Part shown: positions 27,194 to 40,240 of the stretch, piece after piece
Layout of the letters: each line of letters opens with the position of its first letter
How positions within the stretch are numbered: position 1 is the first letter of the stretch
Assembly (NCBI GenBank): GCA_000165345.1
Contig: CM000430.1
Coordinates: forward strand, 512,001-576,000
Reading direction: 5' to 3'
Length of the DNA stretch: 64,000 bases
Position numbers and translations under genes: made by a program
Notes under the pieces: model-generated
The model's input: the letters and a program-made list of their open reading frames with translations, nothing else
Databases searched by the model: none
Told to the model about the DNA's origin: nothing

Positions 27194-29164
27194 ATGGCGC
27201 TAAACATATTTTATTATTTTAGTAAAATTATGAATACCCTTTATACATCGAAATTCATATTTTTTGGAGTTTTCACAGTTCTTTGCTCTTGGTTCCCATT
27301 TACATCATTACTTGCTGCTCCTGGAGTTTGTTCTAGCAGCTTTGAAGGGCTGATTAAGCAGACAAATGGGGGCATAAATTTAATATTAGTATGCGCAGTA
27401 ATCTTAATTGGACTTTATTTATTTTTTTCTGGTGTTGGATTGATTAATTTGTCAGGCTGTCTGTTGAGATTAGGAATGCCATCAGACTATCCAAACGCTG
27501 TAATGAGGGCATTTATGTACTCACAGTTCAGGAGCGATTCAAATTATTCAAAGTCTGAAATTAGAGAGGCAAATGTACATCTTACTGTAAATTCAATATA
27601 TAGCAGCAGTAATGCGAATAGGAGTGTTGAATCAAAGCAAAATACTGATGGATATTATAATAATCACATTTTGACGTTAGACGGTGAGTTTAAAAAGAGG
27701 TTAAAGAGAGCAATGCAAACTGCTAAAGCAAGATTAATCTTAGCAATTGTAAGTGTAATGGTAGTGATATGCGTTTCTTATGCTTCATTTGCTGTCTTTG
27801 AAGGGTCTCAAATTTTTTTGGAACCAAATAGCATAATATTGAATCATAATGGAGTTGATTTGTTAGGACCTGAATCAAAATTTGGAAATACATGTTTACT
27901 TTTAATAATTACAGCAATTTCAATAGTCATTCTGAACATGAATAAGTGCGGCTCATTTATTTTGTGTATTGTTTCTTGCATACATTTTTTTGGATTATTA
28001 CTTTTCTTCACTCTTTATTTTATAAACTTTCCTAATGAAGCTGGCCTATCTTTCATTAGTTTTGAAAGCGAAAGCATTCAATTTGATTGGGATGTACATA
28101 TCTGGGGCTTTGTTGGAGGAATTTTGGAGATGGGAGCCTTTGTGATTTCTGCTGTGTCATTTCATATAATCTTGCCTGGGGCATTTAAACTCTTTCCCGA
28201 TTATGAAGTAAAGTCTTCAAGAATTTGGAGAATTACAATATCTTTGATTTTGTTTATTTTTTTCTGCGGGATATCAATAATTTTGGGTACAGTCCCTTCA
28301 TTTCCAATTTTACCTTATGGGCTTGAGCCTAGCAGTGAAGGAATTGGTCTGGCATGGAGGATTTTGGAATCAAAAATTAGTTCAAATAGTTTTTTTTCAA
28401 TAAAATTATTAAAGCGTGTTTTTCTTCTGGGTAACTTTATCACTTGGATTCTTTTCGTCTCAGTTGTTATGAAATGCATAGATAATATCGTTAGAAGTAT
28501 TTCAAACCAAGTTGAATGTAATTTTGAGTCGTTCTCTCCAAACAAAAATTCTTTAAGTAAAAGGTATTTTTTAAGATCTGCAAAACAGCAAATTTATGGG
28601 AATGAAACAAATAATACAGGAGGGACATATGAGTATTTATCAAACGACAAAATTGAAGCAAACAGAGTGTTTTTTTGGACAGTATTCAAAAATTTAAAAG
28701 CGTTAGTAAACAGAAATAGAATTCTAGACTTTGCAAGATATTCTGCGAGCTCTGCTTCAGCAATTGGAATAATCTTTTTTGTTCATCACAAGCTAATTTC
28801 TGAGCCATATCTGATTCCTATTTTTAGATCGTTATCTGCCTCAATATTTTCTATTATTGTCCTGATTTTACCCTGTGCAATATTTTGGTTTGTATTTTAT
28901 TCTGAAATGGTTCCACAATCAAGTTCTAATTATCAGATTTTGAATTTAATATTTCTTGGCAGAGTATCCTCAAGAATTGATAGAAGTTATGAGAAACATA
29001 GAGATAAACTTTCCATATACAATGATAATTGCAATTTCTCATGTAATCCCCTCACTTTCGGGTTTTTTTCAATCACTTTTCCAATTATCTTAGGGTGCAC
29101 AATTTTGGTTTATGAGATTTCGAAGTTTGCTTCGTTATGCCTAGGTTTAAGGTTTAACAGTTAG
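27194..29164 (+). CDS. Hypothetical polytopic membrane protein of 656 aa with at least 10 hydrophobic segments.
   Basis: It has an ATG start and many ~20-residue hydrophobic stretches along its whole length. Confidence 0.6.
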   Translation: MALNIFYYFSKIMNTLYTSKFIFFGVFTVLCSWFPFTSLLAAPGVCSSSFEGLIKQTNGGINLILVCAVILIGLYLFFSGVGLINLSGCLLRLGMPSDYPNAVMRAFMYSQFRSDSNYSKSEIREANVHLTVNSIYSSSNANRSVESKQNTDGYYNNHILTLDGEFKKRLKRAMQTAKARLILAIVSVMVVICVSYASFAVFEGSQIFLEPNSIILNHNGVDLLGPESKFGNTCLLLIITAISIVILNMNKCGSFILCIVSCIHFFGLLLFFTLYFINFPNEAGLSFISFESESIQFDWDVHIWGFVGGILEMGAFVISAVSFHIILPGAFKLFPDYEVKSSRIWRITISLILFIFFCGISIILGTVPSFPILPYGLEPSSEGIGLAWRILESKISSNSFFSIKLLKRVFLLGNFITWILFVSVVMKCIDNIVRSISNQVECNFESFSPNKNSLSKRYFLRSAKQQIYGNETNNTGGTYEYLSNDKIEANRVFFWTVFKNLKALVNRNRILDFARYSASSASAIGIIFFVHHKLISEPYLIPIFRSLSASIFSIIVLILPCAIFWFVFYSEMVPQSSSNYQILNLIFLGRVSSRIDRSYEKHRDKLSIYNDNCNFSCNPLTFGFFSITFPIILGCTILVYEISKFASLCLGLRFNS

Positions 29165-30115: not shown

Positions 30116-30688
30116 ATTAAATGTAAATTTTTTAAAATCATTAACTTCGAACAAAAAAAAAATCATCGTGGTATTGATGGAATTTCTTGAAGAATTTTGA
30201 GAACAGTGAGCTCCGGGTATATTTTTTCAGTTGTAATACATCTAAGTGCGTTCAAATAAAAACATAGATTGATTAGGAAACACGAAGAATAGAATATTCC
30301 TTGTTTTTTTTCAAAAATTATTAATTGTGAAATTTGGATTATTTTTGTCTTTGAAAACTCATAAAATATGAACTTAAATAAATAGATTTCTGAGTATTTT
30401 GTCGATTATTTTCGAGATTGGAACTTAGTTTTTAATATTTAAGCGAAATAAATTTTGGCAATAAATAGTATTTAAAGACTATTAAGGTTCAAAGTTTCAT
30501 TTTGGCTATTTACTTTTTATATTTTATGATAGAAAGTAGGTCTAAGGAGTTAATATGGGACATTTTCTTCTTTTTTAATGCAAAGTAAAAATATTCCGTA
30601 TCTGTTTTTTTTATTACATTTTCAAAATATATTTACATATAGGCGCCGGTTAACTGCATTGCATTTAAGGTTTAAACAAAAAAAATTA

Positions 30689-31834
30689 ATGAAAATTAGA
30701 AAGTTATCATTAATACTAACTCTTAGTTTTATGAAGTTTTTTTATGTTTTTTGCTTCGATGAATCTTCAAACTCGATTAAAGAATCATTGCTGAACTGTT
30801 TGCCTCTGAAAAAGGAAAAACTGGGGAAAATAATTAATGGTAAAGAAATATACCCATTAGTCAGCCTAGAAATTAAAACTCAACAGCTTAAACTTGAAGG
30901 TGAAATTATTCCTTCTAAGATAGTTTCACGTCGTATACTTATTGCAAAAGGAGTGGTTCAATCCAGATTATTACCAAATGATGTTTTATATTTCAATACA
31001 AATACGAATAGTAATCAAGCAGTAAAAGCAAAACAATTAGTCGGGGTAGTGACTTATGGCAAAAATAATAGAAAAGAAGAGCTCTATTCTTCTTGCGATG
31101 GAATAATAAAAGAGGTTTTGCCGCAGGGTTTTCATGATTTTGAGGCTACTTTTTTCGTAATTTACTGTGATTTAAAAAATCCAGTGCTAAGTACATATTT
31201 TGGATACTCAATCGTTCCTATTACTGAGAAAAACACAGTTTTTGGAAAATTTGAAAATGCACCAGCTAAAAAAGAGATGAATATAAAAAAAGACAAGTTA
31301 AATGATCGTAATACTCGACTTATATCAAATAAAGAACACAAAAAATTATATTTTGAGCAAAGCACACATCACAAATATAACTCAAGTTTGGAGTATCAAA
31401 ATAGACAATCAACACATTGTGCTGGTAAATTTCAATTAAACTCGATTTGCATGAATGAAGGGGATTCAGCATCATCAGATAATTCGGAGAATCCTAGTAA
31501 CGTGAAAAGAGTTGAATTTCTCTACAAAAAATGTGTACCAAATAAAAGTAAGCCAGCAGATAGTTCATTAACAGTTAAGTTGAAAGCATACAGAAAAAGC
31601 TTAGAAGCTCTAAAACAATCAGTAGCAAACATTACAGACTTTTCTCGCGTAGGAAATATAAAATTGGAGGATGAAAAGCAACTAGACTTTGATAAACAAA
31701 AGAATTTAGCTTCAAAAATGTCTACTTTGTCCATTAAATATAGGATATGGATATCGTTTGCATTCACGATAATAATTCTAACACTTATAGCTTTGCTTAG
31801 AATATCTAGGTATTCTTTCACACATAGTACTTAG
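30689..31834 (+). CDS. Type I membrane protein with a signal peptide and a single C-terminal TM segment, about 381 aa. The ORF track begins at 30578; I think the ATG at 30689 giving MKIRKLSLILTLSFMKFFYVFCF is the more likely start.
   Basis: The internal Met begins a canonical signal peptide. The C-terminus has IWISFAFTIIILTLIALL followed by a short basic tail. Confidence 0.5.
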   Translation: MKIRKLSLILTLSFMKFFYVFCFDESSNSIKESLLNCLPLKKEKLGKIINGKEIYPLVSLEIKTQQLKLEGEIIPSKIVSRRILIAKGVVQSRLLPNDVLYFNTNTNSNQAVKAKQLVGVVTYGKNNRKEELYSSCDGIIKEVLPQGFHDFEATFFVIYCDLKNPVLSTYFGYSIVPITEKNTVFGKFENAPAKKEMNIKKDKLNDRNTRLISNKEHKKLYFEQSTHHKYNSSLEYQNRQSTHCAGKFQLNSICMNEGDSASSDNSENPSNVKRVEFLYKKCVPNKSKPADSSLTVKLKAYRKSLEALKQSVANITDFSRVGNIKLEDEKQLDFDKQKNLASKMSTLSIKYRIWISFAFTIIILTLIALLRISRYSFTHST

Positions 31835-32066: not shown

Positions 32067-33359
32067 ATGAGATCGAAAGGTAGTTCTATTAAAGAGAAAA
32101 ATTCCGAATATACACCCAAGGATGATGGTGTATTGCTTCCAGAGAAAAGAAGCTTATTTAAAATATCTGATAATGGCGTTACAGTCCCTAGATTGGAGTT
32201 GTTTTATGGGTATCTGAATATTCCATTGAGGTATATTTCACTTTTACTTCTTGCTTTGAAGGCAGTATGTGTAGTATTGTGTACAAGACTTAGTTTTAGA
32301 TTTCCTGCAAAAGATGGACGTAATTATATTCCTTCAGTGGCAGTTGTTTGTTCAGAATTTATCAAACTAACAGTCTCGTTAGCCATGATTTTTATTACAA
32401 CCGCAAAAAAAGATATTAGGGCTTTTCCAAAAGCACTATATTTGGAATTTGTGTCGGATAAGTTTGGTAACTTAATAGTTTTGATACCGGGGGTTCTATT
32501 CCTTTTCCAAAATAACTTACTATATATTTCATTGAAAAGGCTTCCTGCAGCTCTTTATCAGGTCATGTATCAGCTGAAAATTCTTACAACTACATATTTT
32601 AGCGTTCTAATTCTGAAGCGAAAACTTAGTTTAACTCGTTGGTTCGCATGTTTTTTGCTCATTTTTGGAGTTATAATGATCCCAAAGAAATCAAAACACT
32701 CTTCTACAGAGCGTACTTCGGGGTTATCAGAGTTTATCATTGGTCTTTTTGCTGCTTTTACTTCTTCATTTACATCTGGGCTAGGGGCCGTAGTGCTTGA
32801 AAAAGTACTTAAGGATACCGATGAACGCATTCACACAGGAAATGGTGAATTCCAGACTACAGTTTGGGGAAGAAATGTAATTCTTGCTTTAGTTGGAATA
32901 ATTGGGGGAGTTCCATTAGCCTACTTTAGCTCCAAGGACCAAATAGCACAGTATGGAGTTTTTCAGGGTTTCTCTCCGTTCGTATTGTTGGTTATATGTT
33001 TGAATGCAGGAACAGGTTTCGTAGTAGTTGCAGTTTTAAAATACGCAGATGGAATCTTAAAGTGCTTCTGTAATGCACTTTCAATTGTATTAATTACGCT
33101 AATATCATGGCTATTTTTGGGAGACACAAAAATGACTCCTAGATTCGCGTTTGCAGCAACTATTGTTGTTTGCGCAGTGACAATTTACTCTTTAGACAAA
33201 GTAATTCCTCGGAAGTTTTATTCAACGGAATTGTTTAGTTCTAAACTTTCATCTAATAATACCGATACCTTTGATTCAGCTGAGAAAACTGAACAATTTA
33301 AAGGTCTAGAGAAAGATCCAGAAAATTCACTCTTAATTCAGCGAGATACGAAGACTTAA
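32067..33359 (+). CDS. Nucleotide-sugar transporter of 430 aa, SLC35A/UDP-Gal/UDP-GlcNAc transporter family.
   Basis: It has about 10 TM segments and family-signature stretches: LFLFQNNLLYISL, YQLKILTTTYFSVLILKRKLSLTRWFACFLLIFGV (compare human SLC35A2 KILTTALFSVLML..LS..QWASLLLL), and LKYADGILKCF. Confidence 0.8.
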   Translation: MRSKGSSIKEKNSEYTPKDDGVLLPEKRSLFKISDNGVTVPRLELFYGYLNIPLRYISLLLLALKAVCVVLCTRLSFRFPAKDGRNYIPSVAVVCSEFIKLTVSLAMIFITTAKKDIRAFPKALYLEFVSDKFGNLIVLIPGVLFLFQNNLLYISLKRLPAALYQVMYQLKILTTTYFSVLILKRKLSLTRWFACFLLIFGVIMIPKKSKHSSTERTSGLSEFIIGLFAAFTSSFTSGLGAVVLEKVLKDTDERIHTGNGEFQTTVWGRNVILALVGIIGGVPLAYFSSKDQIAQYGVFQGFSPFVLLVICLNAGTGFVVVAVLKYADGILKCFCNALSIVLITLISWLFLGDTKMTPRFAFAATIVVCAVTIYSLDKVIPRKFYSTELFSSKLSSNNTDTFDSAEKTEQFKGLEKDPENSLLIQRDTKT

Positions 33360-33893
33360 ATATTTGACGGCCACTTACTTTCGTATATTTTTGACATTTT
33401 TCCAAGCCTAAATTATTAATATATGTATTTTTGTGAGATCGTAATGCCTAAAAACTACTTATTAGTAATTTGATAAGTTTCGTGATAATTTACGAATAAT
33501 TCATGCGTAATTAACATTGATGTTTGTAATTATTAAATAAGTCCTAGGCTCTACTGAAAGTATCTCTTATAAAAATTGATATATTTTCAAGTATTATTTT
33601 TCTCTTTAGAAAAATTCGATCTAGAATCCTGTGATTAATTGCTCAGATTCGTTTTGAATGCGCAATGATTTTAGTATAAACTATTTCGAAGAATATTTAA
33701 GTTGTAGTATTAAGATGTAACCTATCTACTTTATTAGCGCGTTAGTTGGAAATTCGAGTTGATTATTTTATGGTGCTTTAATTGGCGCAATAATGCGGCC
33801 TCGATGTGGGTAGTCTCATTTGAAGGTAACTAGATTTTACGTACAGGAATGGATAGAATTGGTGGACAAGTTGGGCCATCTTGAAGCTTTAGA

Positions 33894-35138
33894 ATGAAGG
33901 TTGAACAAAATGTGATAACAACTGAAGCAACCCGATTGCTAGAATGCGAAGCATTCAAAGAGAGAAAAATGTTTGAAATTTACTATTCCAACGGCCTTTA
34001 TTATTTGGCAATTTTCAAGGGAAGATATAACATTCAAATGAGATTTCTCACTCTAATTTTAATGTCGGTTCAGTGTATTTGCGTTGTATTATGCATGAAG
34101 TTGAGCGTTACTTATCCAGCAAGCGATGGAAAACAATACTTAACTCCAGTTGCTGTAGTTATGGTCGAAATTTTGAAATTACTTACTTCTCTGTTCATGA
34201 TTTTCCAGATTTCTGGTGGAAATTCGTTCAAGGAGTTTATTTATGCTTTAAAGTGCGAGTTTCTACATGATGTACGAGGAAATCTTCTAGTAGTTGTTCC
34301 AGGAATTTTATTCTTGTTCCAAAACAACCTTACATATATTGCAATTGAGAATCTCCCTGCTTCTATATACCAAGTAACTGCACAATTAAAGGTACTTACT
34401 ACTGCATTGTTCAGCGTTGTATTATTAAAAAGAAGTCTTAGCACTACTAGATGGTTTGCTTGTTTTTTGCTATTTGTTGGAGTATTATTGGTCCAAAAAA
34501 CCAATATTAGAAATAAAGGGAGTATTAATTCTTTCCAGCTCATGATTGGCTTTTTAGCATCAGTCACGTGCTCTATCACATCTGGTCTTGGATCTGTAAT
34601 TATCGAAAAGGTAGTAAAAGACCCGGATGACTCTAAGATTGTCTCTTCTGATATCGAAAACTCTACAAAACTAGATAATCTAATTGATGAAAGACCTAAC
34701 GATAGAGTTCAATATAAGTCTTCAGTTTGGGGTAGAAACGTCATTCTATCCCTTATTGGAATATTTGGAGGCACTCCTATCGCTTGGATTACATGTAAAG
34801 AAAAAATAATCAGAGATGGAGTTTTCCAGGGTTTCTCTTGGCTAACTATTTTAGTTATTTTTCTGAATGCGTACGGAGGTTTCATTGTAGTCGGCGTTCT
34901 TAAATACTCGGACAGTATTATGAAATGTTTTTTCAATGCTTTAACTATCGTTATCATTACCATATTGTCTTGGGCATTTATGGGTGATAATACGCCTTCG
35001 ATCAAGTTCTTCATTGCATCCACGATCGTAATTATAGCTATAAGCGTATACACTTTTAATAAAGTTTTCCCAGATTCGTTCTACACAAAGTTTTCAAGGC
35101 TCTTTAAATTCAAGAATAGAAATACAGAATCTCATTAA
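33894..35138 (+). CDS. Second nucleotide-sugar transporter of 414 aa, a tandem paralogue of the upstream gene.
   Basis: It shares the same signatures (LFLFQNNLTYIAI, AQLKVLTTALFSVVLLKRSLSTTRWFACFLLFVGV, LKYSDSIMKCF). I estimate ~50-55% identity to the neighbour. It carries an extra acidic loop (DPDDSKIVSSDIENSTKLDNLIDERPND). Confidence 0.8.
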   Translation: MKVEQNVITTEATRLLECEAFKERKMFEIYYSNGLYYLAIFKGRYNIQMRFLTLILMSVQCICVVLCMKLSVTYPASDGKQYLTPVAVVMVEILKLLTSLFMIFQISGGNSFKEFIYALKCEFLHDVRGNLLVVVPGILFLFQNNLTYIAIENLPASIYQVTAQLKVLTTALFSVVLLKRSLSTTRWFACFLLFVGVLLVQKTNIRNKGSINSFQLMIGFLASVTCSITSGLGSVIIEKVVKDPDDSKIVSSDIENSTKLDNLIDERPNDRVQYKSSVWGRNVILSLIGIFGGTPIAWITCKEKIIRDGVFQGFSWLTILVIFLNAYGGFIVVGVLKYSDSIMKCFFNALTIVIITILSWAFMGDNTPSIKFFIASTIVIIAISVYTFNKVFPDSFYTKFSRLFKFKNRNTESH

Positions 35139-35347: not shown

Positions 35348-38300
35348 TTACGTCCCAACATTTTCGTTGAGAGAGGATTCGGTTCTATTGGATGTAGTCT
35401 TCGAGGGATTAGGAGCCTTAATTTGCTCAAAATCTCTAAATTTGAAAATCACGGTTCTCAATGCTATGGAAATGATGACATTAAGCATTAAGAAAAAAAC
35501 ACACCAAAAGGTAAGTTCAATTTTCCAAAATTTAGGGAAAATATTGTTATTGTATTGCCCGTAAAATGGTGAAGAAAGTTTAATCCAGTTATCTGGGAGC
35601 GATCTTGAAGTTTGATCGTCACAGTTAATTCTCAGAATACAACCTAATCGAGACGGCTCCATCCAGATGCAAAACAAAATGAAAAAATTCATAGTAATAT
35701 TCCATATAATTAGAAGAATATTGGTTTTCATTGGAATAAGAGAAGATGAACGTAGCCAAATTGGCCATACTTGGTTGACTAATTGGAAAGAAATGTAACA
35801 CCAGGACGAAGCGGCTTCAATATTATCTTGTCTAATGTGCCAAAGGTAAACCGGAATAGTTAAATTGTACCTGAAACAACGTTCGATTCCATGCTTTGGG
35901 AGAACGAAGTGAACTAGTCTGTTAGAAATGACAAAAAAACCTAGTAAAGAAATGAGCAGAGATAGAAAACTTGCAGTATAAAAAGTGTGGAATCCAACAT
36001 GGCTCTTAATGTTATATATCTGTTTATTAATCAGTGCTGATGGGCTTTCATTGTCAACCAATAACATATATTTATCGGAATTCACATCAATAGCATAAGT
36101 ATTTAGGTTTTTAATTCTTGTATTGACGCAATCTGAGTTACAAGTCTCAGGATAATGGCTGCTCGTAATATCATGCGAAGGATGATTTATAGTCGTATTC
36201 ACATTCTTTATTTTATATTCTTTTGGTCTGGAAAATGAAAACAACAATAGTGGAAGTAAAGTACAAAAAATATCAATGAAAAGCCATGCCATAGCAGGTA
36301 TCATTGCTTGAGATTGCCATAAGAGAAAGGTTTTGCATGTAACGAAGAATATTCCAAGCAAAACTATATGTTGATACATTGATACAAATGCAAAAACAAC
36401 GCCTCGAGACTCTATTACTAGTCTACAAACAGAATGTAAACCATATGGGAAAATCTCTGAAATAAATGGAGCAACAAGGCCATTACATTTAATTGTTTCT
36501 GTTATTAAAAGACCTGAGTTTGCTTTCTGTAGTGCAATAATGTCATTTGGACCATCACCAACCATAAGTACAGTCATTCCTAGCCTTTCAAGTAGTTCAA
36601 CCGCCATAGATTTCAGTTCAGGAGTAAATCTGGCAAAAATGGCAGTATTATAAATGATTTTTGAAAATATAGATAATTCAATTAGCTCATCTGGAGCTTT
36701 GCGTTTGTAGCCAGCATACGTTTCCAAATTAAGGATATTAATAAATAGTTTGAAAGCATCCGATGATAGTGCAATTTGAAATTTATCTTGAATAATTTGT
36801 TGAGGTATAATGCCCGATAATGCACGAATTTTGTTTTTATTTTTCAAAGAAAATTTGACTTTTCTTTTTGAATTTTCAATTTCCCAAACTAAATTATTCT
36901 CCAGGTCAATGTAACAGGAAGCAAATCTATTAAAAATCATACCAAGTTCTTTTGCAACAACGATTGCTGAATTAATATTGTCTCCCGTAATAATAGGGCA
37001 GTGAAAATTACCATTCTTCAGCAGCTTGAGAACTAATTTTGCTTCTGGCCTTATAGGAGAATGTAGCTGGGCTAACCCAAGAGGAATAAAAGATGAGCTT
37101 AAGTGCTTATAGGAAAGAGTATTATTGCTAGAATTAGCTTGATCATTTACCACTTTATAACAGTATCCAAGGATGTATGAACCTGCGACTTGGTTCTCGA
37201 GTATATCATTAGACCAGTCTCTGAAACTAGTTCCATCACTACAATCGTCATAATTGGTTGTTAATTCCACAATCTTCTCTGCTGCACCTTTCATAAAGAG
37301 CATAGATGTAGAGCGAATACAATACAAGTTTGAAGAAAGTTCAGATTCAATCGAATACTTCTTTATAGCTACACTTTGAGATCTTAGTGTTTCATCAAAC
37401 GGATATCTTTTCGTTATCTCGACTGCATCACAAACAGCAGAAATATATTCAAGTGAATTTTTTGGGTAAACATTGTCAAGCTGTTGAATGTCAAAGCTTG
37501 CCCCGTAGTCTAAAATTAGATGAGATTCAAGTTCTATAACCCTCTCAAGGAAAGTCTTTCTATTACATAAGGGAATAATAAAAAGCCTTTCAGAGCTAAA
37601 AGTAAATACTTTATAGCCACAAAAACCTGAGTAGTTATACAAACATTGTTCTAGTTTAGACCCAGAAGGGCAGCTGAAGGAGTTCTTTCTTGTTAACTGT
37701 AGTGGCCCTGCCTTTTCAAATATTAAATTATTACATGTAGCCATTGCCAAATGCATTAGATGGTCTCTTGTATTATTTCTAATTGGGTAGATATGTACAT
37801 TATTAATTGAAAACGTAGGGACAGTTAAAGTACCTGTCTTATCAAAACATATTGTATCTACAAGGAGCAGCTGATTTAATTTTTTGGGATTTGTTGTTAG
37901 AATATGTTCACTGTTTAGATACTTGATTGCATTGTTAAAGTACAAAGACATGGAAGAAGTAGACCAAAAAGGAATGATATAAATTATCGTCGAAACAATG
38001 AAAAATATCGAGCCGATCTCAAAAGATAAAGTATATGAATCGGTTAAAGCAATAAAAGTTCCGTATATGAAACACAAAATCCAAAGAGGTTCTGGAGTAA
38101 AATTCCAATTTCTTTTAATGCTTTTGTAAAGATCGCAATGCCTACCTAATGATGAGATTGATTCTGAAGTAAAGTCACGTCTTGAGTTCGATGTTAAGAG
38201 AGGAGGCAATCCTTCAGTAAATCCATGTTCGTCATTGGCGTTAGAATGGCCTGAGGTAAATGTTCCATGAAGTGTAGCTGATCCTGTTCTTGTTACCATA

Positions 38301-39652
38301 GCTAGCGTTATGCCAGTTGATGAAACTTCCAAAACTTGGCTGCCAGCATAAAGATGCCTAGAATTAGATAGCACGTCGCAGGCTAAGGAAAATTCAGAGG
38401 GAGCAATTTGAATTCCACCTGTCTTACATTGTGGAGTCGCTTCACCAGTAAGACATGATTCATCTACCACAACATTCCCATTAAGCAGTAATAAGTCAGC
38501 AGGGATCCGCATGGCCTTGTCTATGAAAATGACTGTACCAGGAAAAAGTTCTTTTGACAAAACAAAGGAGCTACCGGCATTTGAATATGAATGGGGCTTG
38601 TATGGCCCTGTAAGATATCTATAAATATCCCAGTCATGTTGAGTAAGCACTTTTTCTGTTTCAATATAATTACGTCTGGACTTAATAATTGACCAAGAAA
38701 TTGTATAAAATGTAATTATGGACCAACAAAGAGGCCAGACAATAAATGAATAAAAAAGCGCATCTAATAATGTCATAATACGAATAATGTTTAAAACTGA
38801 GGTAAACTCAGAAAAAATGAGTTTCCATAGTGAAAGAGGGTATGAGCCTAAGCTGTTAGTTCCAACAAATTCAAGAATTTTATCTTTATCATGGTTTCCA
38901 AAGGATTCAATAACTTGGTCCCTTACCTTTAGAAAGTCGGTATTTTCTACAGGAAAACTTTCAGCGGCTTTTCTGGACAAAATTTCTCTGGACCAAGTGA
39001 ATTCATTTTCATACCACCAGTATTTCTCTCTACGGTATTCAAAGTATCTATCAGTCTCTGTACCAAAAAAGTTGATTGGCTCGCTTCTTTTAATGATACG
39101 ACAGAGCTTAGTAACTGGAAATTTTTCCAAAACACGAATATAATAATTACCAAATAATTTGCACCATATGTTATTTTTTGAAAATCTACAAGATCCTGGG
39201 AAGCTGATAGAGATAAATTCGCAGTCAGAAAGATCCTCAGGTACTAGGAATATTTGTTCAAAAGATCCATATTTTGCTTTCAGTAATTTTAAAAAGACAA
39301 TACAAAATATAACAGTCAATAAACTTCTAGCATAAATTTTCACAGCTTCATGCCAATTAAACGAAGACTCAAATGTTTGTGTATACGATTTGTAAAACAT
39401 AATTGCTACTACAGAAACATGAAAAACGAATGGGTAAAAAATCAAAAAAAATATCTCAATTTGTCTGAGGAATTCTCCAAAAAAAGATTTTTTTAAACCA
39501 ACTATTTGGAATAACCCTGTTTTACCTTTGTTTACATGCTTTGTTCTAATTTGATAACAAATAGCCAACATTAAGTGAAACAACAAAACAGTTGAAATGA
39601 TAAAAAATCCACATTTTTGTAGATATAGTAACCACTCAAAGATATTATCCAT
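35348..39652 (-). CDS. P-type ATPase of 1434 aa, most like P5-type (ATP13A/Spf1-like).
   Basis: It has the phosphorylation motif ICFDKTGTLT (the CFDKTGTLT form typical of P5), LLLLNGNVVVDESCLTGEATPQ (P5-like A-domain region, but TGEA rather than TGES), the hinge motif MVGDGPNDIIALQKANSGL, and extra N-terminal TM helices. Confidence 0.75.
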   Translation of the reverse strand: MDNIFEWLLYLQKCGFFIISTVLLFHLMLAICYQIRTKHVNKGKTGLFQIVGLKKSFFGEFLRQIEIFFLIFYPFVFHVSVVAIMFYKSYTQTFESSFNWHEAVKIYARSLLTVIFCIVFLKLLKAKYGSFEQIFLVPEDLSDCEFISISFPGSCRFSKNNIWCKLFGNYYIRVLEKFPVTKLCRIIKRSEPINFFGTETDRYFEYRREKYWWYENEFTWSREILSRKAAESFPVENTDFLKVRDQVIESFGNHDKDKILEFVGTNSLGSYPLSLWKLIFSEFTSVLNIIRIMTLLDALFYSFIVWPLCWSIITFYTISWSIIKSRRNYIETEKVLTQHDWDIYRYLTGPYKPHSYSNAGSSFVLSKELFPGTVIFIDKAMRIPADLLLLNGNVVVDESCLTGEATPQCKTGGIQIAPSEFSLACDVLSNSRHLYAGSQVLEVSSTGITLAMVTRTGSATLHGTFTSGHSNANDEHGFTEGLPPLLTSNSRRDFTSESISSLGRHCDLYKSIKRNWNFTPEPLWILCFIYGTFIALTDSYTLSFEIGSIFFIVSTIIYIIPFWSTSSMSLYFNNAIKYLNSEHILTTNPKKLNQLLLVDTICFDKTGTLTVPTFSINNVHIYPIRNNTRDHLMHLAMATCNNLIFEKAGPLQLTRKNSFSCPSGSKLEQCLYNYSGFCGYKVFTFSSERLFIIPLCNRKTFLERVIELESHLILDYGASFDIQQLDNVYPKNSLEYISAVCDAVEITKRYPFDETLRSQSVAIKKYSIESELSSNLYCIRSTSMLFMKGAAEKIVELTTNYDDCSDGTSFRDWSNDILENQVAGSYILGYCYKVVNDQANSSNNTLSYKHLSSSFIPLGLAQLHSPIRPEAKLVLKLLKNGNFHCPIITGDNINSAIVVAKELGMIFNRFASCYIDLENNLVWEIENSKRKVKFSLKNKNKIRALSGIIPQQIIQDKFQIALSSDAFKLFINILNLETYAGYKRKAPDELIELSIFSKIIYNTAIFARFTPELKSMAVELLERLGMTVLMVGDGPNDIIALQKANSGLLITETIKCNGLVAPFISEIFPYGLHSVCRLVIESRGVVFAFVSMYQHIVLLGIFFVTCKTFLLWQSQAMIPAMAWLFIDIFCTLLPLLLFSFSRPKEYKIKNVNTTINHPSHDITSSHYPETCNSDCVNTRIKNLNTYAIDVNSDKYMLLVDNESPSALINKQIYNIKSHVGFHTFYTASFLSLLISLLGFFVISNRLVHFVLPKHGIERCFRYNLTIPVYLWHIRQDNIEAASSWCYISFQLVNQVWPIWLRSSSLIPMKTNILLIIWNITMNFFILFCIWMEPSRLGCILRINCDDQTSRSLPDNWIKLSSPFYGQYNNNIFPKFWKIELTFWCVFFLMLNVIISIALRTVIFKFRDFEQIKAPNPSKTTSNRTESSLNENVGT

Positions 39653-39958
39653 TTGTTATAAAACTACTCCCATAGTTAAAATATCTTGAAGGGGTTTTTG
39701 AACTTATACTATGTCTTAAGTAGTGTAAGCCGTTTCCAATAATTGAATAAAACTTGATATCGTTAAATAAAAAATAAGTATTCTTTAAAAATTATGGACA
39801 GAACTTTTTTTAAATAATAAAAGTATAATATTGAATATTAAAAAGTCAAAATTTCCATCTAATTTACTCTTAAGATGAATGATATTAATTAAAAGTTGTT
39901 CTAAATACAAGTATTTTCCAATTTGTATAAAAAATTGCGATTGCAACGATAATAAAGC

Positions 39959-39968
39959 TGGCGCCAAG
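39959..39968. promoter_or_regulatory. TGGCGCCAAG E2F-like palindrome in the divergent promoter between the ATPase gene and the bromodomain gene.
   Basis: Read directly from the sequence. Confidence 0.4.
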
Positions 39969-40240
39969 CTGCTTATCCATAAAAAATTATTAAATGTAAA
40001 TATTGATACATAAGTTACCAGTTTAATGCTATTTTAAGTAAAACTTTTACATATTTGTAATTCTAAAGGTTTTTCTAAAAGAAAATTTGGTTTCAGAGAT
40101 TTGTCTGGACAGCTATTTATGTATTCTCATAGATATTTGCGCAGCTAAATACATATTACTTAATTTAGGTTAAGTAAATTAGAATACCATCATATTTAAG
40201 ATCTAACTAGAAAGTGGTTTTCGAGTCTTCTACACTGATT

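Follow-up and report, generated by a model that had tools for sequence, protein, structure and literature searches.

Why does a parasite with a streamlined genome keep two neighbouring genes for the same type of membrane carrier, and do the two products still perform the same task? This question is raised by a stretch of DNA from chromosome 2 of Cryptosporidium parvum (GenBank assembly GCA_000165345.1, contig CM000430.1, positions 512,001 to 576,000, forward strand), whose entire 64,000 nucleotides are called the window below. Its open reading frames (ORFs) are large and intronless, its G+C content is approximately 31%, and two of its uninterrupted ORFs, arranged head to tail, encode predicted nucleotide-sugar transporters (NSTs) of the SLC35A type. 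An exact-sequence look-up equates copy 1 with EAK88735.1 (cgd2_2660) and copy 2 with EAK88736.1 (cgd2_2670), and the compact parasite genome that a preliminary description of the window had recognised from the letters alone is that of C. parvum. The parts of the locus are given here in window coordinates, which include the stop codons.

32067..33359, + strand: coding sequence of copy 1 (cgd2_2660, 430 amino acids), an SLC35A-type nucleotide-sugar transporter with a PF04142 match and an exact match to EAK88735.1
33360..33893, + strand: spacer of 534 bp, comprising the 3' flank of copy 1 and the upstream region of copy 2
33894..35138, + strand: coding sequence of copy 2 (cgd2_2670, 414 amino acids), a paralogous SLC35A-type transporter with a PF04142 match and 100% identity to EAK88736.1

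The preliminary description had placed two head-to-tail paralogues of 430 and 414 amino acids 534 bp apart and had seen no disruption in either. The ORF list of the window returns the same coordinates, sizes and spacing, and both frames are intact. Our answer to the question is that the two genes probably encode intact, selectively maintained SLC35A-type carriers that descend from an old tandem duplication and have since divided their labour. There would have been a single old tandem duplication within the Cryptosporidium lineage, probably before the gastric and intestinal species separated, and the upstream, 2660-type copy would later have been lost in the gastric species. After the duplication, copy 1 would have kept an ancestral-looking cavity while acquiring changes of its own in the first two transmembrane helices (TM1-TM2), as well as a sorting-like motif in a long cytosolic tail. 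Copy 2 would have gained derived cavity substitutions and an enlarged acidic cytosolic loop.

The genes have been part of the annotation ever since the genome appeared in 2004. In 2022, a review on glycosylation in Cryptosporidium listed cgd2_2660 (430 amino acids) and cgd2_2670 (414 amino acids) among four uridine diphosphate (UDP)-sugar transporters, describing both as "UDP-GlcNAc transporter-like" (GlcNAc, N-acetylglucosamine) and as "arranged in tandem in chromosome 2" (PMC9713705). Thus, the pair and its tandem arrangement are already known as such. What is new here is modest. The tandem is kept across the intestinal species and is a single copy in the gastric species, probably through loss; the pair forms a divergent, genus-specific clade that is separate from a third NST of more canonical type; the cavity of copy 2 contains derived substitutions; and the copies differ in conserved cytosolic motifs. 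These additions sharpen the choice of experiments and leave the overall picture as it was.

Family membership and predicted fold

There are 183 identities among 398 aligned positions of the two proteins in a BLASTP comparison (46%, with 68% positives and an E value of 6e-120). Their paralogy is therefore far above chance, and the earlier estimate of about 50% identity was a good one. The three signature strings that had been quoted for the pair all occur in both copies, as LFLFQNNL[LT]YI, QLK[IV]LTT..FSV..LKR.LS.TRWFACFLL and LKY[AS]D[GS]I[LM]KCF. Membership in the SLC35-type transporter family is borne out by matches to Pfam family PF04142 (Nuc_sug_transp) of 248.5 bits for copy 1 and 234.5 bits for copy 2, where the gathering cut-off is 27 bits.

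AlphaFold2 models of both proteins contain ten long helices. The mean predicted local distance difference test score (pLDDT) is 74.6 for copy 1 and 77.5 for copy 2, and the predicted template-modelling score (pTM) is 0.70 and 0.76, respectively. When these models are compared with the PDB by Foldseek, the best matches of both are structures of the mouse CMP-sialic acid (CMP-Sia) transporter (6XBO, 6OH2 and 6OH3; E values of approximately 1e-13 to 3e-12), with target-normalised template-modelling scores of 0.76-0.78 for copy 1 and 0.74-0.78 for copy 2. The same mouse transporter is the best solved relative in a sequence search (E value of 4e-30). These observations suggest that both genes encode ten-helix SLC35A-type proteins for which antiport function is predicted.

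In a profile search of 1.84 billion representative sequences, the Cryptosporidium clade to which the pair belongs scores 663 bits and the next protein scores 243 bits. The best outsiders of this profile are vertebrate SLC35A3, nematode 'UDP-GlcNAc transporters', proteins of Gregarina, Lankesteria, Siedleckia and Chromera, and another Cryptosporidium PF04142 protein, here called P0066, from C. andersoni, C. muris and C. serpentis. Table 4 of PMC9713705 contains one further PF04142 protein of C. parvum, cgd2_590, and P0066 is presumably its counterpart. P0066 shares 44-45% identity with the proteins of Gregarina and Chromera and only 34-36% with the pair, and the pair is 30-35% identical to all proteins outside its clade.

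The phylogeny with characterised transporters that the preliminary description had proposed was run with proxies, namely SLC35A3 of platypus, lungfish and cod, a bee 'UDP-galactose translocator' and residues 26-317 of mouse SLC35A1. In the neighbour-joining (NJ) tree the pair forms a long branch of an alveolate grouping with 74% bootstrap support, apart from animal SLC35A3 and SLC35A2, and it has no specific grouping with either. Identity gives no sign of SLC35A3 orthology, with values of 30-31% to platypus SLC35A3 versus 33-35% to the bee UDP-galactose translocator and 31% to mouse SLC35A1. To judge by its long branch, its low identity to outsiders and its separation from SLC35A3 and SLC35A2, the pair is a divergent, genus-specific lineage. 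The published name 'UDP-GlcNAc transporter-like' is a nearest-name label and makes no statement of orthology.

Age of the duplication and selection on the copies

The synteny of the pair is the same in every intestinal Cryptosporidium species sampled. Tandem order and orientation are kept in C. meleagridis, C. ubiquitum and C. xiaoi, where the pair is flanked by an orthologue of the 418-amino acid ORF upstream of copy 1 and by a minus-strand gene for a P-type ATPase. In C. xiaoi the spacer is 940 bp long, compared with 521-563 bp in the other two species. C. canis, C. felis, C. ryanae and the chipmunk genotype likewise have the two types of paralogue, as do two further assemblies, in which they share a contig.

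The gastric species have a single gene. C. muris and C. andersoni carry it between the same neighbours that flank the C. parvum pair, and C. andersoni and C. serpentis each have one protein from the pair clade. With the two copies as queries, tblastn recovers only the single gene at the loci of C. andersoni and C. muris, with no relic of a second copy. The C. andersoni contig begins 1.2 kb upstream of the gene, and thus the C. muris locus decided this point.

There are three ways to join the gastric gene to the paralogues. Its grouping with copy 2 is recovered in two NJ trees with bootstrap values of 92% and 100%, and in the maximum-likelihood (ML) comparison it has log-likelihoods (lnL) of -7509.6 with 17 taxa and -11380.2 with 35 taxa, for which resampling of estimated log-likelihoods (RELL) gives weights of 0.73 and 0.80. 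Its grouping with copy 1 has NJ support of 0% (lnL -7513.9, RELL 0.19 with 17 taxa; lnL -11385.6, RELL 0.15 with 35 taxa). The grouping of copy 1 with copy 2, which would place the duplication after the gastric/intestinal split, also has NJ support of 0% (lnL -7515.0, RELL 0.08; lnL -11386.8, RELL 0.05 for the same two samples). The most likely history, favoured but not proven, is a duplication older than the split that was followed by loss of the 2660-type copy in the gastric species.

Synonymous sites between the paralogues are saturated (proportion of synonymous differences, pS, 0.79), and there is no sign of gene conversion. The ratio of nonsynonymous to synonymous substitution rates (dN/dS) among orthologues is 0.11-0.14 over both copies and 0.12-0.14 for copy 2 taken alone, a pattern which indicates that both are functional and under similar purifying constraint. 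The preliminary description had named two outcomes that would speak against it, recent identical duplicates without substrate-site differences and a pseudogene, and neither is what we find. The pseudogene and recent-duplicate readings are ruled out by the dN/dS values and by the saturated synonymous divergence between the paralogues.

There are 36 sites that are invariant in each paralogue clade and different between the clades (at least nine species each), alongside 107 alignment columns that are invariant over both clades. At these 36 sites the gastric protein resembles copy 2 mainly in TM1-2 and TM9-10 (copy 1 residues 54-90 and 339-375) and resembles copy 1 mainly in TM3-7 (copy 1 residues 152-274). 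A mosaic history or gene conversion was considered for this pattern and set aside, because segment-wise likelihood differences do not exceed 3.6 lnL units and show no strong conflict. Complementary divergence fits the pattern better than recombination.

Cavity, tails and upstream region

The cavity residues discussed here were taken from studies of SLC35A1 and SLC35A2 (PMC8411240, PMC6508934) and are numbered as in mouse SLC35A1. E52, K55, Q101, N102, K124, T128, S188, N210 and K272, which bind the nucleotide in SLC35A1 and SLC35A2, are the same in the two copies, in every orthologue examined and in the gastric gene. In SLC35A1, cytosine is read by Tyr214, and the corresponding residues are Ala274 in copy 1 and Ser286 in copy 2; SLC35A2 has Gly239 there, and outgroup UDP carriers have G, A or S. 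Because Tyr214 is replaced by Ala or Ser, CMP-Sia is an unlikely substrate of the pair, and we know of no sialylation in Cryptosporidium. The conserved residues point instead to a nucleotide-sugar/nucleoside monophosphate exchanger whose head group is likely to be a uridine nucleotide, which would make UDP-sugar/uridine monophosphate antiport the expected reaction.

Fixed differences between the paralogues reach into the cavity region, where those of copy 1 and copy 2, respectively, are L152/T147, Y168/A163, I172/V167 and A274/S286. Copy 2 alone departs from copy 1, the gastric protein and the outgroups through L to T at SLC35A1 position 105 (Q129 of SLC35A2), Y to A at position 121 and I to V at position 125. 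The A to S change in the KYAD motif is likewise confined to copy 2, with copy 1, the gastric gene and the outgroups in agreement. Position 214 has Ser in copy 2 against Ala in copy 1 and the gastric gene, at a site that is variable (G, A or S) in the wider family. Changes specific to copy 1 are concentrated in TM1-TM2, with a further G to T change at position 256.

The divergent N-terminal tails and the extra acidic loop of copy 2 that had been described earlier are both seen in the alignments. Between the EKV.K and VWGRN motifs, this loop has 35 residues in copy 2 versus 16 in copy 1. A further difference, absent from the preliminary description, is the C-terminal tail, which has 51 residues in copy 1 versus 23 in copy 2 and is therefore about 28 residues longer. 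SLC35A1 has ten transmembrane helices, and both of its termini are cytosolic. Because this topology is established, the N-terminal tail, the TM6-TM7 loop and the C-terminal tail of both copies are expected, by analogy, to face the cytosol. These segments, together with a conserved block in the spacer, are as follows.

32067..32225, + strand: N-terminal extension of copy 1 before TM1 (residues 1-53), with a [DE]xxxL[LI] motif (DDGVLL) and a predicted three-strand beta meander
33204..33356, + strand: C-terminal tail of copy 1 (residues 380-430), with a conserved D.E and then, near its end, a [DE]xxxL[LI]-like motif (DPENSLLI)
33782..33794, + strand: TTGGCGCAATAAT block, located 112 bp upstream of the copy 2 ATG, an E2F-like half site by resemblance only
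33894..34037, + strand: N-terminal extension of copy 2 (residues 1-48), with a [DE]xxxL[LI] motif (EATRLL) and a predicted three-strand beta meander
34620..34724, + strand: enlarged acidic TM6-TM7 loop of copy 2 (residues 243-277), predicted to be cytosolic, with D[IV][ED] in 9/9 orthologues

The loop of copy 2 is modelled by AlphaFold2 at low confidence with one short helix, and the C-terminal tail of copy 1 is modelled as disordered. The [DE]xxxL[LI] motif of this tail is present in 9/11 orthologues, against a chance expectation of approximately 0.1 per tail. In the N-terminal tails the motif is present in 7/11 orthologues of copy 1, in 8/9 of copy 2 and not at all in C. andersoni (chance approximately 0.13 per tail). 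The beta strands of the AlphaFold2 models span residues 31-34, 42-45 and 50-53 in copy 1 (meander at 32157-32225, pLDDT approximately 61-63) and residues 27-32, 35-40 and 45-48 in copy 2 (meander at 33972-34037, pLDDT 72-83). The N-terminal extension in which this meander is predicted is kept across the Cryptosporidium clade and is missing from canonical SLC35A proteins.

In other eukaryotes, di-acidic and acidic-dileucine motifs are classical signals for export from the endoplasmic reticulum (ER) and for adaptor binding, respectively. A sorting function for the motifs in the tails and loop of the pair is speculation, but their differences are of the kind that would be expected if the two copies traffic differently.

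Regulation might differ as well. The TTGGCGCAATAAT block is conserved in C. parvum, C. meleagridis and C. ubiquitum, at -112, -113 and -121, respectively, and there is none upstream of copy 1. It lies within the proximal 150 bp or so of the spacer, which is conserved among the same three species, and it resembles the E2F-like GGCGC motif that has been reported from Cryptosporidium promoters. Its location upstream of copy 2 alone hints that the copies may be regulated differently.

Sub-functionalisation by substrate or compartment, as the preliminary description had proposed, is plausible but unproven. It is still a reasonable reading because the copies are ancient, are both under purifying selection and differ at cavity-lining positions. 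The two carriers would then both work in the secretory pathway and differ in substrate, in compartment or in both.

Alternative readings, neighbours and known systems

Several points weigh against an old duplication with a subsequent division of labour between two UDP-sugar carriers. The ML comparison was made with a home-made BLOSUM62-derived model, gamma rates and fixed subtrees, and the topology with a duplication after the gastric/intestinal split retains a RELL weight of 0.05. Polarised characters are distributed as three for the gastric gene with copy 2, one for the gastric gene with copy 1 and two for copy 1 with copy 2, and the gastric gene agrees with each paralogue clade at 17 of the 36 fixed-difference sites. 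The putative sorting motifs are short and could be fortuitous. A literature search for cgd2_2660 and cgd2_2670 yielded one review as its sole match (PMC9713705), with no transport, localisation, expression or knockout data.

The cavity itself adds to these difficulties. At SLC35A1 position 261 all other UDP-type sequences compared have Ala, but the two copies have Val and the gastric gene has Leu; in UDP carriers, Ala in place of Ser261 of SLC35A1 frees Asn210 to read O4 of uracil. In the three-pocket model, Gln278 of SLC35A2 contacts the beta-phosphate (PMC8411240); this residue is Asn across the pair clade but Gln in nearly all other UDP-type sequences, the third NST included. This is a conservative amide-to-amide change, and its effect is uncertain. 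Relative to canonical UDP carriers there are also clade-wide changes of N269 to G or S, G192 to A or S, and Y98 to F. Because these changes affect positions that are constant in UDP carriers, a UDP-sugar substrate for the pair is likely but not assured.

A remodelled cavity in a long-branched, genus-specific clade is also what might be seen if one or both proteins were located at the plasma membrane or the feeder organelle and imported host UDP-GlcNAc and UDP-N-acetylgalactosamine (UDP-GalNAc), or other nucleotide-sugars. The conserved acidic-dileucine-like motifs of the pair would suit such a location, since motifs of this kind serve post-Golgi sorting elsewhere, and the more canonical P0066 would be at hand for the Golgi job. 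Scavenging has been raised by other authors for the NST-like repertoire in general (PMC9713705), and some NSTs may reside at the feeder organelle (PMC10774378). However, the motifs are short, and the characterised members of the family are ER or Golgi proteins. SLC35A carriers are obligate exchangers, and therefore net import would require a gradient of counter-substrate. In addition, the gastric species share the biosynthetic gaps and yet get by with one copy. We regard scavenging as unlikely. A related proposal is that the pair clade is a fast-evolved, Cryptosporidium-specific offshoot of SLC35A with an extra-Golgi job, which its remodelled cavity and conserved sorting-like motifs would reflect. 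At the plasma membrane or feeder organelle it might exchange host UDP-N-acetylhexosamine (UDP-HexNAc) or some other nucleotide. The paralogues would then serve different membranes or substrates and the third NST would serve the Golgi, an arrangement that we find similarly doubtful. A shift to another nucleotide altogether, for example to purine nucleotides in the manner of the ATP/ADP carrier SLC35B1, is very improbable. It would offer a candidate for the purine nucleotide importer of C. parvum that has been deduced genetically and has no assigned gene (PMC6800313, PMC8744675). The cavity does depart from the UDP-sugar consensus at approximately five positions, and SLC35B1 ATP/ADP exchangers are among the fold matches. 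However, identity to SLC35B1 is only 11-13%, and the pair has kept every one of the residues that read the pyrimidine base and the phosphate in SLC35A1 and SLC35A2 (K55, N210, K124 and K272 among them). A small residue takes the place of Tyr214, as it does in UDP carriers. The structure of the mouse CMP-Sia transporter (mCST) accounts for the exclusion of the larger guanine base from such a pocket (PMC6508934). It is because the pyrimidine-nucleotide contacts are intact that both scavenging and purine uptake are rated low.

Perhaps the copies have not diverged in function at all, and are dosage duplicates with the same substrate and the same compartment that are kept for capacity or robustness. 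Their fold, core binding residues and level of constraint are alike, the gastric species live with one copy, and the genome has another NST-like tandem array (cgd3_490-510; PMC9713705). Nevertheless, this redundancy is decidedly unlikely for genes that are only 46% identical at the protein level, whose synonymous sites are saturated and which show no sign of gene conversion. Their 36 fixed differences, each based on at least nine species per clade, include cavity positions, and their cytosolic tails, loop and upstream sequences are unlike. Fully redundant genes are, as a rule, not expected to persist for long in a streamlined genome of 9 Mb. Decay of one copy is a general fate of duplicates, and the gastric lineage is indeed single-copy, but it is extremely improbable here that either gene is decaying or non-functional. 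Both ORFs are intact in every species examined, dN/dS is equally low for each, and 107 columns are invariant over both clades.

The surroundings of the pair do not help to choose among functions. The preliminary description had pointed to giant secreted proteins and a repeat antigen as context, which is only loosely checkable. There are giant ORFs of 2319 and 2621 amino acids with signal-like N-termini, and one 318-bp repeat with three copies, but no Pfam match supports these labels. As functional evidence the neighbourhood was rejected, since the giant ORFs have no Pfam domains, the neighbours are neither Ser/Thr-rich nor mucin-like (Ser plus Thr of 13-15%), and the same neighbours flank the single gene of C. 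muris. To our knowledge, Cryptosporidium genes have no functional operon organisation. Gene adjacency in C. parvum carries no functional implication, and the context argument is therefore unsupported. The individual neighbours can be described as follows.

4453..6714, - strand: ORF of 753 amino acids with a signal-like N-terminus and no Pfam match, presumably the 'repeat antigen'; at 4501-5450 it contains a 318-bp tandem repeat (3.0 copies, 78% matches), the only sizeable tandem repeat
27194..29164, + strand: ORF of 656 amino acids without a Pfam match, three genes upstream of the pair; it has roughly ten hydrophobic segments and may encode an uncharacterised multi-pass membrane protein or transporter
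30578..31834, + strand: uncharacterised ORF of 418 amino acids adjacent to copy 1, with a C-terminal hydrophobic anchor
35348..39652, - strand: P-type ATPase of 1434 amino acids with weak partial Pfam matches (E1-E2_ATPase 49 bits, Hydrolase 47 bits)

The ATPase has long insertions and looks divergent, and it adjoins the transporter gene or genes in every species examined. Orthologues of the 418-amino acid ORF are called at 381 amino acids in C. meleagridis (locus L005, 4623-5768) and C. ubiquitum (locus L006, 4608-5753), which suggests a later start codon. Its counterpart in C. muris (locus L004, 6651-9167) has 838 amino acids, of which approximately 100 are recognisably similar, and the C-terminal hydrophobic anchor is present in all. 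The gastric species have an extra gene with an OHA domain (PF14418, approximately 551-555 amino acids) between the P-type ATPase gene and a bromodomain gene, at L004 15759-17426 in C. muris and at L001 6999-8654 in C. andersoni. In C. parvum (window 39653-40213) and C. xiaoi (L003), the bromodomain gene directly follows the ATPase gene.

If the pair indeed comprises two maintained carriers with divided labour, their cargo would be sought among the UDP-sugars that are used in the lumen of the secretory pathway. The luminal users in Cryptosporidium are the polypeptide GalNAc-transferases, which require UDP-GalNAc, and a beta-1,3-glucosyltransferase that acts on O-fucose and requires UDP-glucose (UDP-Glc). 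The parasite makes UDP-Glc and UDP-galactose (UDP-Gal), and it has no de novo synthesis of UDP-GlcNAc or UDP-GalNAc (PMC9713705). By analogy with TgNST1 of Toxoplasma, it is reasonable to suppose that UDP-GalNAc is supplied by one or more of the three PF04142 proteins. For this task the pair has no better claim than the canonical third protein. The more specific suggestion of the preliminary description, that the pair supplies substrates for mucin-type O-glycans, is not supported, since the pair is a divergent branch with non-canonical cavity residues and the UDP-sugar residues of P0066 are canonical. ALG5, ALG6, ALG8 and ALG11 are also missing from the gastric species (PMC9713705). Loss of an NST copy would add to the differences in glycosylation between gastric and intestinal species, with no mechanistic link evident.

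The assignment of these carriers matters because surface and secreted glycoproteins of Cryptosporidium, such as gp40/15, gp900 and other mucins, are O-GalNAc-dependent adhesion factors and vaccine candidates. Carriers of UDP-GlcNAc and UDP-GalNAc are potential choke points in a parasite without de novo synthesis of either, and the division of roles among its approximately 12 NST-like proteins is of practical interest.

Among known systems, an apicomplexan NST with measured activity is TgNST1 of Toxoplasma gondii, which raises uptake of UDP-GalNAc approximately 90-fold and of UDP-GlcNAc approximately 6-fold and supplies O-GalNAc glycosylation (PMC3642066), the role that had been proposed for the pair. 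Its counterpart in Cryptosporidium is more likely to be P0066, because this protein groups with the gregarine and Chromera proteins on a short branch. P0066 shares its genus, its Pfam family and a common alveolate grouping with the pair, and its locus is unlinked. Unlike the pair, it has canonical residues at the Q278 position (Q) and at positions 261 (A), 269 (N) and 192 (G). With these cavity residues and its closeness to gregarine, Chromera and SLC35A3 proteins, P0066 is no weaker a candidate than the pair for the housekeeping UDP-HexNAc carrier. The genes cgd3_490, cgd3_500 and cgd3_510 of C. parvum likewise form a tandem array of the NST superfamily (PMC9713705), but this array has three copies on chromosome 3 and belongs to a different, GDP-fucose-transporter-like family (sugar-phosphate/GDP-sugar, TPT-like). 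The animal UDP-GlcNAc and UDP-Gal/GalNAc transporters SLC35A3 and SLC35A2, which are the origin of the database name, share with the pair their Pfam family and a small residue at the Tyr214 position, whereas their KYADN motif is KYADG or KYSDS in the pair. Mouse SLC35A1 (6OH2, 6OH3 and 6XBO) has the same ten transmembrane helices and the same nine core cavity residues at approximately 29-31% identity. It lacks the N-terminal extension of about 45-50 residues, as well as the long C-terminal tail of copy 1 and the enlarged TM6-TM7 loop of copy 2.

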